DNA from: Klebsiella phage vB_Kpn_K54_rec1
Length of the DNA: 64,000 bases
Sequence record: PQ569687.1
Strand: one strand, 5' to 3'
The notes beneath the pieces are model-generated. The model saw nothing but the letters and a program-made list of their open reading frames with translations, was not told the DNA's origin and did no database searches. The translations under genes were made by a program, and so were the position numbers. Shown one piece after another: positions 21,726 to 22,291 of this stretch. Positions within the stretch are counted from its first letter, which is position 1. Each line of letters opens with the position of its first letter.

Positions 21726-21877
21726 TTTGTTCTCCTTTCGGTTTTGATTTGAAACGAGAGCACTTTCGTCCATTTAAGCTATCGCCCTGTGCCATTACGC
21801 GAGCCGGGCCAGCAAGAACGGGAGTCGAACCCGTATCTCTCTCATTTCAAACTTGGTGGGGCATGAAGGATTCGAAC

Positions 21878-22291
21878 CTAGAGAGTTATCGTTCCTGCAT
21901 GAACCCTTCGGTGGCAGTTTGAACATAAAACTGCACACTTTCTAATTTCAGCCTTTAGGCGTTCCATACTATACATGTAGAATGTTGCTGGGTCACCTTC
22001 TTTCAAAGAAGAGTCAAGGTGATGAAGATCGAGGACTATAAAATCCTTCTCACCACAAACCACGCAACCGCAAAAAGATTTATAACGCCTAACAAGGTCA
22101 CGTTTCTTTTTCCTTGCAGCCTCATTTCTCTTACGTACATCTTTCTTCCTTTTATCAGAGGATTTATAATGCTCGTGATTTTGCTCTTTTCTACACATCT
22201 TGCATGATGTTTGCAACCCATCTTTCTTAGCCTTGTTCTTAAAGAACTCAGACTCATCTTTCATGGTATTGCATCTTCTGCATAACTTCAA
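21878..22291 (-). CDS. HNH homing endonuclease (137 aa) whose 3' end is fused to a tRNA 3' remnant
   Basis: TTG start after GGAGG. HNH motif LDLHHLD...CSNCHRRVH. The stop codon TAG lies directly in front of a tRNA T-arm sequence GGTTCGAATCC. Confidence 0.6.
   Translation of the reverse strand: MKLCRRCNTMKDESEFFKNKAKKDGLQTSCKMCRKEQNHEHYKSSDKRKKDVRKRNEAARKKKRDLVRRYKSFCGCVVCGEKDFIVLDLHHLDSSLKEGDPATFYMYSMERLKAEIRKCAVLCSNCHRRVHAGTITL

Follow-up and report, generated by a model that had tools for sequence, protein, structure and literature searches.

An HNH endonuclease gene over tRNA-Lys(CUU) adjoins a probable Ro60-independent, YrlA-like tRNA mimic in Klebsiella phage vB_Kpn_K54_rec1

Here we analyzed a stretch of 64,000 nucleotides (nt) of Klebsiella phage vB_Kpn_K54_rec1 (PQ569687.1), called the window below, which is 100% identical to Klebsiella phage vB_Kpl_K54lambda1.1.1 (Vequintavirinae, Mydovirus). 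Two unrelated features adjoin on the minus strand, at the edge of a cluster of 22 transfer RNA (tRNA) genes called by ARAGORN in the window: an HNH endonuclease gene lying over a tRNA gene, and an intact structured RNA of 106 nt. We consider it probable that the HNH gene overwrote tRNA-Lys(CUU) and that the adjoining element is an intact, permuted tRNA mimic resembling the YrlA RNAs and acting independently of Ro60. The tRNA gene has been replaced, and the element exists with definite boundaries, conservation, base-pairing, and a YrlA-like layout. The endonuclease event is an ordinary one, and the neighboring YrlA-like RNA without Ro60 is the novel part. The HNH open reading frame (ORF), the tRNA remnant, and the T-arm of the structured RNA are all read on the minus strand, as are the local genes.

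The HNH cassette is about 419 nt long and consists of GGAGG, four T, a TTG start, an ORF of 137 amino acids (aa), and TAG. The ORF matches phrog_2255 “HNH endonuclease” (E=9.5e-38), while its match to the Pfam HNH family is borderline, at 21.3 bits with a cutoff of 21.4. In alignment, the protein is full length relative to its homologues, with the CxxC...HH...NCHxxxH motifs present. As a preliminary description of this DNA had pointed out, the stop codon is followed directly by a T-loop and a CCA end. The sequence after TAG, GTTCGAATCC TTCATGC CCCACCA, comprises the T-loop TTCGAAT, the T-stem 3′ strand CCTTC, the acceptor 3′ strand ATGCCCC, the discriminator A, and CCA; this T-arm is incomplete, with three of the five nt of the T-stem 5′ strand left (AGG). 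No tRNA is called at the locus by ARAGORN, and the Rfam tRNA model gives 13.8-15.7 bits with a gathering score of 29. The same description found the 5′ partner of this T-loop to be missing, and a search of the whole window at <=3 mismatches likewise recovered no copy of the tRNA 5′ half.

Alignment with relatives that lack the HNH gene, which had been proposed as a check, revealed the ancestral gene. An intact 76-nt tRNA-Lys(CUU) lies exactly here in the HNH-less phages KB57, Ro1, Hena1, and PVP-SE1. The KB57 sequence at the site, GGGGTATTAACACAGCGGTTAGTGTAGCGGCCCCTTAAGCCGAAGGTCGAAGGTTCGAATCCTTCATGCCCCACCA, is called as tRNA-Lys(ctt) by ARAGORN (L001 2130-2055), and the last 26 nt of the relatives' tRNA-Lys(CUU) are identical to the remnant in the window. 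Against KB57, identity runs up to tRNA G1G2 on the left and resumes at A51 (AGGTTCGAATCC...) on the right. The cassette stands in place of tRNA nt 3-50, with its junctions at tRNA nt 2/3 and 50/51, and only nt 51-76 of the 76-nt gene remain. The left junction is at or within the first GG of GGAGG, which is shared with tRNA G1G2, and is ambiguous by 2 nt. On the right, an 83%-identical HNH gene in contig L146 ends at the same codon position with TAG, which indicates that the stop belongs to the cassette and that the overlap of AG/AGG with the T stem reflects microhomology at the junction. The metagenome contig L019, with the same HNH gene and junction, carries the T-loop substitution TTCAAAT, as expected of dead sequence. 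The first T-loop thus appears to be the non-functional stub of a tRNA-Lys(CUU) overwritten by the HNH cassette. A tRNA-Lys(UUU) is still encoded in the window (16183-16258, ARAGORN), so the loss of tRNA-Lys(CUU) is tolerated.

A side observation concerns the ancestral gene itself. The KB57-type tRNA-Lys(CUU) has the anticodon loop CCCUUAA (L001 2093-2099), with C at the universally U position 33, and one record annotates it as “tRNA-OTHER”; the normal loop CUCUUAA is found in Ro1, L021, and NINP13076. Judging from these loops, tRNA-Lys(CUU) may already be impaired in many Mydoviruses.

The HNH gene occurs in 7 of 61 related phage records found by megablast, namely K54lambda1.1.1, the recombinants rec2-6, and VLCpiM5a, and also in the metagenome contig L019. 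KB57 and about 30 other close relatives lack it. In more than 25 relatives, with 92-97% identity on either side of the site, the region is shorter by about 400 nt and “tRNA-Lys” is annotated here. Such sporadic presence and absence at one locus among collinear close relatives is as for free-standing homing endonucleases, and together with family membership it suggests that the gene acts as a homing endonuclease. A protein-database search for a donor HNH gene upstream of an intact tRNA returned relatives of 76-83% identity, all at this locus with other deletions. In VLCpiM5a, an extra insertion of about 50 nt with an inverted repeat (TAGTCTCC...GGAGACT) lies between the upstream ORF and the HNH cassette (L003 ~2490-2545) and is not in the window.

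The preliminary description also drew attention to TTCATGC as a direct repeat. Both copies are real, at 21867-21861 and 21903-21897 (minus strand), 36 nt apart, but the motif is at chance level, with 12 copies in the window and 11.75 expected. The upstream copy falls within the codons GTT-CAT-GCA, which encode V-H-A in the conserved HNH motif NCHRxxHAG, and the homologous HNH gene of phage KIL1 also has TTCATGCAGG; the other copy is tRNA T-stem and acceptor sequence. We rejected a target-site duplication on account of this chance frequency and of the conserved HNH codons in one copy.

The structured RNA begins 1 nt after the CCA of the remnant (Table 1). Its T arm is the second, orphan T-arm of the preliminary description and is as perfect as stated there (ACGGG-TTCGACT-CCCGT), although it starts 20 nt after the CCA rather than 30. 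It does not belong to a canonical tRNA: there is no ARAGORN call, the Rfam tRNA match is truncated at 13.8 bits, no complement of UCUUGCU is present upstream, and the T arm precedes the D arm. UAGCUUA and AAAG of the D-stem 3′ strand are invariant, and the first D-stem pair is G-U in 10 sequences and G-C in 5. By the rules of tRNA and YrlA (PMC4201824), the U of AGAU would pair with the second A of the D loop in a Levitt-type 15-48 pair. The layout is the one expected of a circularly permuted tRNA whose anticodon loop is opened and whose acceptor end is closed, and would make the element a mimic that cannot be charged.

Table 1 Features of the tRNA-Lys(CUU) locus and related features in the window.
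Feature	Position	Strand	Details
tRNA-like (YrlA-like) RNA element, whole, 106 nt	21852-21747	minus	120.5 bits with its own covariance model R1
Closing helix P1, 5′ strand GUUUGAAAUGAGAG	21839..21852	minus	14 contiguous base pairs with 21760-21747
Variable-loop equivalent AGAU, 4 nt	21835..21838	minus	AGA invariant in alignment A3; fourth base U in 11/12
T arm ACGGG UUCGACU CCCGU	21818..21834	minus	Second T-arm of the preliminary description; CGGG/CCCG core nearly invariant
8-nt linker and closed acceptor-like hairpin	21782..21817	minus	Stem GCCC 21809-21806 / GGGC 21787-21784; variable apex
U8-A9 equivalent and D arm, UA GCUU AAAUGGACGA AAGU	21762..21781	minus	GG in D loop; aligns to Rfam YrlA D arm
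Closing helix P1, 3′ strand CUCUCGUUUCAAAU	21747..21760	minus	Preceded by G21761, equivalent of tRNA position 26
3′ remnant of tRNA-Lys(CUU), nt 51-76, apparently dead	21879-21854	minus	AGG TTCGAAT CCTTC ATGCCCC A CCA
HNH endonuclease ORF, 137 aa	22291..21878	minus	TTG start at 22291; stop TAG at 21880-21878 straddles the right junction
Ribosome-binding site GGAGG	22296..22300	minus	4 nt upstream of the TTG start
62-aa ORF	21725-21537	minus	Own ribosome-binding site; phrog_9123 matched end to end
Second phrog_2255 HNH ORF and tRNA-Lys(UUU)	16183-16749	minus	Stop at 16249, 10 nt into the intact tRNA (16258-16183)

The element, including the second T-arm, is unchanged in relatives without the HNH gene and is present whether or not that gene is; this conservation points to function rather than to an ancestral tRNA. 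It is kept in Mydovirus, Henunavirus, some Seunavirus, Sugarlandvirus (Demerecviridae), and the Xanthomonas jumbo phage XbC2. When the KB57 region was used in BLAST, the Sugarlandvirus VAC51 (T5-like) and XbC2 matched only past the tRNA. Conversely, PVP-SE1 has the tRNA-Lys with the element precisely missing, and this clean absence marks the element as a discrete module. Its plan is shared across loci: an end helix, AGAU, the T arm, a variable hairpin, UAGCUUAAAUGGACGAAAGU (the D arm, with GG in the loop), and G. The strands of the end helix are UUGACAAUCAAAG/CUUUGGUUGUUAA in the Sugarlandvirus IME260 and CCUACAUAAAG/CUUUAUGUAGG in XbC2. What lies downstream varies by lineage, being an ORF in Mydovirus, a sigma-70-like promoter in L015, LNA4, and NINP13076, tRNA-Asn in Sugarlandvirus, and an unrelated ORF in XbC2, which argues for an autonomous RNA rather than a leader or terminator.

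Base-pairing is maintained by compensatory change. In an alignment of 12 sequences (A3), 96.8% of the cells are paired and 11 of the 27 pairs are changed on both sides. The covariation score of this alignment is 0.324, compared with <=0.091 for slid controls, and none of 500 shuffles reached the observed value. Ten of the 14 pairs of P1 are changed on both sides, with 96-97% of cells paired (12-15 sequences). In a larger alignment of 15 sequences (A4), which is biased towards the covariance model because it was fitted to it, changes on both sides affect 14 of 27 pairs, among them three T-stem pairs and one pair of the acceptor-like stem. The three compensatory pairs among the five of the T stem are changes from A-U to C-G or U-A, together with CUGGG/CCCAG in L149 and CCUGG/CCAGG in L146. 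The acceptor-like stem is kept in 12 of the 15 sequences, with one compensatory change from G-C to A-U, in L149, and Sugarlandvirus has a different hairpin, AGGC/GCCU, at this position.

A covariance model built from A3, termed R1, gives members 82-123 bits and all other sequences <=40 bits, and finds a single copy in the window, at 21747-21852. Second-tier matches to R1 (L073, L126, L082, L022, and others) were adjacent tRNA genes and were set aside. No member was recovered from 185,579 bacterial and archaeal genomes in two exact-pattern scans, which gave one chance match in a coding region of Clostridia, and a metagenome scan yielded only three Mydovirus-like contigs. When viral contigs were searched with a generic T-then-D pattern, most matches were pairs of adjacent tRNA genes or canonical YrlA-like RNAs. 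From these comparisons, the second T-arm appears to belong to an intact tRNA-like non-coding RNA and not to a destroyed tRNA. The preliminary description had the HNH gene destroying one or two tRNA genes; it was correct for tRNA-Lys(CUU), which is intact in the HNH-less relatives, and mistaken for the second T-arm, which is unchanged in them and part of a covarying RNA. The finding that it held would count against its reading, relatives without any tRNA here and with unconserved T-arms, was obtained for neither arm.

Several further observations on the element were made along the way. Variant elements were found in L146 (538-643) and L149 (1-96). Henunaviruses have an extra piece of about 100 nt between tRNA-Lys and the element (Hena1, L004 682-786; pEa_SNUABM_56, L007 ~790-900), which ends in a T arm, an acceptor-like strand, and CCA (GUAGGGUUCGAAUCCCUACCUCCGCCCACCA in Hena1) and has a multi-arm, cloverleaf-like fold; neither ARAGORN nor Rfam calls a tRNA in it. 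In every phage record inspected, the element is unannotated or overlaid by spurious ORF calls. Several public records place ORFs across it (21537-21773), for example a 78-aa ORF beginning inside the element, and OY979426 gives implausible product names here (“replication initiation protein”, “tail protein”).

The best Rfam match of the element is YrlA (RF02553), at 14.1 bits and E=1.7 with a gathering score of 69 (146-nt scan, 21748-21851). YrlA model positions 13-96 are matched with all domains aligned, while positions 1-12 and 97-114, which form the distal Ro-binding stem, are unmatched; the Hena1 element scores 15.1 bits. An Rfam search over 1.7 kilobases (kb), at the gathering threshold and at E<=10, gave only two tRNA-Met genes and noise, with no intron. 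Most YrlA RNAs have been described as “circularly permuted tRNAs with closed acceptor stems” (bioRxiv 10.1101/312249), and the element resembles YrlA (RF02553; PMC4201824; bioRxiv 10.1101/312249, PDB 6cu1) in being about 100 nt long with paired ends in the place of the anticodon arm. Both have the same order of variable loop, T arm, closed acceptor-like hairpin, U8-A9, and D arm, and both have a T loop UUCGA, GG in the D loop, a T-stem core CGGG/CCCG, and a variable acceptor hairpin. Some YrlA genes also adjoin tRNA genes, as the element does. Its T-stem core equals that of the Rfam consensus GCGGG/CCCGC, and its D stem is GCUU/AAGY compared with GCUC/GAGC; this likeness of the T and D stems could equally reflect common descent from tRNA. 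Unlike YrlA, in which the stem is stacked directly, the element has an 8-nt linker before a 4-bp acceptor-like stem. It also lacks the distal Ro60-binding helix and the 5′ GNCGAAN0-1G motif, its 5′ strand being GUUUGAAAUGAGAG. The string GACGAAAG is present, but in the D loop of the 3′ half, and it is not conserved in Hena1 or XbC2.

These differences bear on the definition of the family. Chen et al. 2014 defined YrlA by its tRNA-like T, AS, and D modules together with the 5′ GNCGAAN0-1G motif, a putative Ro60/Rsr site, and by location within ~4 kb of a Ro60/TROVE gene on the same strand (PMC4201824). Their search covered only TROVE-containing genomes, whereas the element lies inside tRNA clusters of enterobacterial and Xanthomonas phages. 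YrlA binds Rsr and is modified by TruB and DusA (PMC4201824), and an unknown effector is the probable ligand of its conserved T and D stems (bioRxiv 10.1101/312249). With the Ro-like gp220 of mycobacteriophage ET08 as the one tblastn query, 360 phage records were returned at E<=0.1, none of them from Klebsiella, Erwinia, or Xanthomonas phages. This single query had no match at E<=10 in the window, in its flanks, or in the loci of the element's class, and it does find Ro60 beside seven canonical YrlA-like elements in viral contigs. These Ro60-adjacent phage elements score 32-44 bits with Rfam YrlA, also below the gathering threshold, and Rfam found nothing at the gathering threshold in the ET08 Ro60 region. 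RNA ligases are often linked to YrlA/Rsr loci. On the plus strand at ~29185-31263, the annotation of the identical phage PQ569688 has a phosphoesterase and an “RNA ligase and tail fiber protein attachment catalyst” (T4 Rnl1-like); lying about 8 kb from the element, these genes have only a loose association with it, of uncertain meaning.

Further permuted tRNA-like elements were observed in large phage tRNA clusters on the viral contigs L064 (8287-8379), L093 (5131-5221), and L086 (4719-4804), with no Ro60 gene in the contig DNA examined. The element of L064, in a jumbo-phage tRNA cluster, scores 41 bits with YrlA and 31 bits with R1, and the three look like intermediates between canonical YrlA and the class found in the window. 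Other stable RNAs of phage tRNA clusters offer a looser parallel. RNA I, III, and IV and the “tRNA-like” RNA1-3 of T5 (NC_005859), and species I and II of T4 (PMC2330249), are about 100-145 nt long, lie between tRNA genes on the same strand, and are presumably freed by tRNA-processing enzymes, some of them having been called tRNA-like. The T5 RNAs differ from the element in having no sequence or structure similarity to it and no T-hairpin-D order. R1 run with filters off on 30 kb of T5 covering the tRNA-gene region gave 16.9 bits at best, from adjacent tRNAs. We found no description of this RNA class in Ro60-less phages in the literature.

The wider phrog_2255 family has a habit of placing its genes against tRNAs. 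In KIL1, pEa_SNUABM_56, and KP12, the ORFs sit directly upstream of an intact tRNA (tRNA-Thr, tRNA-Lys UUU, and tRNA-Arg, respectively) and read about 10 nt into it. In two of the three the stop is the tRNA's own U8-A9-G10 TAG, and in the third it is a TAA in the D arm. The second phrog_2255 HNH ORF of the window does the same, using U8-A9-G10 of tRNA-Lys(UUU) as its TAG stop (...TCG GGT AGG TAG CCGAGCGG). As a speculation, RNase P cutting of the precursor would remove the HNH stop codon and could thereby limit expression of the endonuclease; a similar idea appears in PMC2330249.

At the tRNA-Lys(CUU) locus itself, other HNH genes have left other outcomes. In L015 (IMGVR_UViG_2938709436_000001; 889-1233, 745-890), a different phrog_2255 HNH of 114 aa (...CANCHREVHYD*) replaced tRNA-Lys(CUU) up to the anticodon and stops at a TAA belonging to the anticodon loop; beyond this stop, both the 3′ half of the tRNA and the YrlA-like element have been left intact. 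In L144 (1501-1920; Logan SRR12632049, a 151-kb contig), an HNH gene of 76% identity occupies the same locus; it has the same upstream GGAGGTT as the window cassette and is followed directly by a membrane-protein gene, and the tRNA-Lys, the YrlA-like element, and the 62-aa ORF have been lost. The locus is a hot spot, struck independently several times with different deletion end-points.

The most likely history is that double-strand-break repair promoted by the endonuclease, or else illegitimate recombination, took place at the tRNA gene. On the right, the crossover would have fallen at the universally conserved T-loop motif GGTTCGAATCC, leaving the cassette stop abutting the old T stem. SegB, a homing endonuclease of the T4 tRNA cluster, recognizes the T-loop motif GGTTCRANTCC (PMC2330249), which corresponds to the place of the window's right junction and makes a break and crossover there plausible. 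T4 SegB (GIY-YIG; PMC2330249) and T5 F-TflI/II/IV and hegA-D (HNH) are likewise endonuclease ORFs lying between or against tRNA genes; like other phage tRNA-cluster endonucleases, the window gene is present or absent among close relatives, with neighboring tRNA genes lost or exchanged. In the T5 annotation (NC_005859), hegC and hegD overlap the 5′ ends of tRNAs, one of which is a pseudo-tRNA. Unlike in the SegB and T5 cases, the window ORF is not merely adjacent to a tRNA gene and has physically replaced two thirds of it. The HNH family of the window also differs from that of SegB, and cleavage and homing are putative here.

Some results weigh against the reading proposed here. The YrlA E-value of 1.7 is at noise level, and such a match does not tell homology with YrlA from convergence from tRNA. 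The minimum-free-energy z-score of the single sequence is only -1.8. The acceptor-like stem has 4 bp and is separated from the T stem by the 8-nt linker, so coaxial stacking in the style of tRNA and YrlA is not guaranteed; this stem has one mismatch in AV124. The T loop of XbC2 is atypical (GUCAGAA). The absence of the element from L144 makes it dispensable at least there. In L146 the distal half of P1 is disrupted, with a 5′ strand, CUUUCAUGC, that no longer pairs with the 3′ strand, which could reflect decay after HNH insertion or an assembly artefact of this 1.1-kb contig. For the endonuclease gene, the junction could reflect either direct replacement or an upstream insertion followed by deletion.

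These points have to be set beside what other explanations would require. Were both T-arms the wreckage of two tRNA genes hit by the HNH insertion, with TTCATGC as its footprint, the second T-arm and its surroundings should not be identical in relatives that never received the HNH gene, nor should the closing helix covary in 10 of 14 pairs across unrelated phages. The element also follows tRNA-Tyr in Sugarlandvirus and lies between protein genes in XbC2, with no HNH gene nearby, and the supposed footprint occurs at chance frequency with one copy in HNH coding sequence. This account is true of the first T-arm, and weak matches of adjacent tRNA pairs to R1 make a tRNA origin of the element in deep time plausible, yet as an explanation of the locus it is very improbable. 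A closer competitor takes the element as a bona fide YrlA Y RNA that binds host Ro60 (Rsr) and tethers it to an effector such as PNPase. The shared domain order and T-stem core, a nearly identical D arm (UAGCUUAA and UAGCUCAA), the fact that YrlA is the best Rfam match, and intermediates such as L064 all speak for it. However, scores of 14-15 bits fall far from the gathering score of 69 and from the 32-44 bits of Ro60-linked phage elements, the 5′ motif and the distal Ro-binding stem are absent, and the Ro60 query found no match in the phage records of the three host genera or in the window and its flanks. We regard a Ro60-binding YrlA as unlikely.

The element might instead act in cis, as a processing or punctuation signal (an RNase P/E entry site or barrier) or as a 5′ stabilizer or leader for the ORF at 21725-21537. 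In Mydovirus, 13 nt separate its end from the ribosome-binding site of the ORF that follows; all its locations are within heavily processed tRNA clusters or at their margins; and tRNA-like structures are known processing signals. Against this stand downstream neighbors that are not conserved across lineages, the lack of a terminator-like U-run after the element, and an acceptor-like stem that is far short of the 7-bp stem needed by RNase P (10.1101/312249), and we judge a cis-acting role quite unlikely. A last alternative, that the HNH gene lies in an intron or split tRNA whose halves are rejoined so that tRNA-Lys(CUU) is still made, has a precedent in the group I introns with endonuclease ORFs that occur in the tRNA anticodon loops of some bacteria. 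Here, only “GG” of the 5′ half lies upstream, and the missing 5′ half excludes a split or intron-containing gene in the window; moreover, the insert is nearly all ORF with no room for a ribozyme core, Rfam gives no intron match, and the junction is in the T stem rather than the anticodon loop. This last alternative is almost inconceivable. An overwritten tRNA-Lys(CUU) beside an intact tRNA mimic thus remains our preferred explanation.

As a working model, the element would be cut from the tRNA-cluster transcript as a stable small RNA and would fold into the L-shape of tRNA, with the GG of the D loop pairing with UUC of the T loop. In this form it could, without Ro60, occupy a factor whose target is the elbow of tRNA or the conserved T and D stems. 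The most attractive guess is that it serves as a decoy for, or a recruiter towards, a tRNA-directed enzyme. It is possible, though tentative, that the element represents a Ro60-independent branch of YrlA-like mimics in the tRNA clusters of lytic phages, in which the tRNA-like module is functional alone. If so, the module would titrate or recruit a tRNA-directed defense nuclease, a tRNA-processing or modification enzyme, or a phage RNA-repair ligase.

The two parts of the locus differ in what they mean. The HNH and tRNA part is a clean, datable case of a homing endonuclease gene overwriting a phage tRNA; it is unsurprising in itself, and it aids annotation by accounting for a stretch passed over by tRNA finders. 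To date, linkage to Ro60 has been the means of finding and defining YrlA RNAs, and what binds their tRNA-like domain is posed as a question in bioRxiv 10.1101/312249. A covarying RNA without a Ro60 site in three unrelated groups of Ro60-less virulent phages suggests that the tRNA-like module performs a function in its own right, and the element may offer a small, genetically tractable system, in phages of Klebsiella, E. coli, and Salmonella, for finding the partner of that module.

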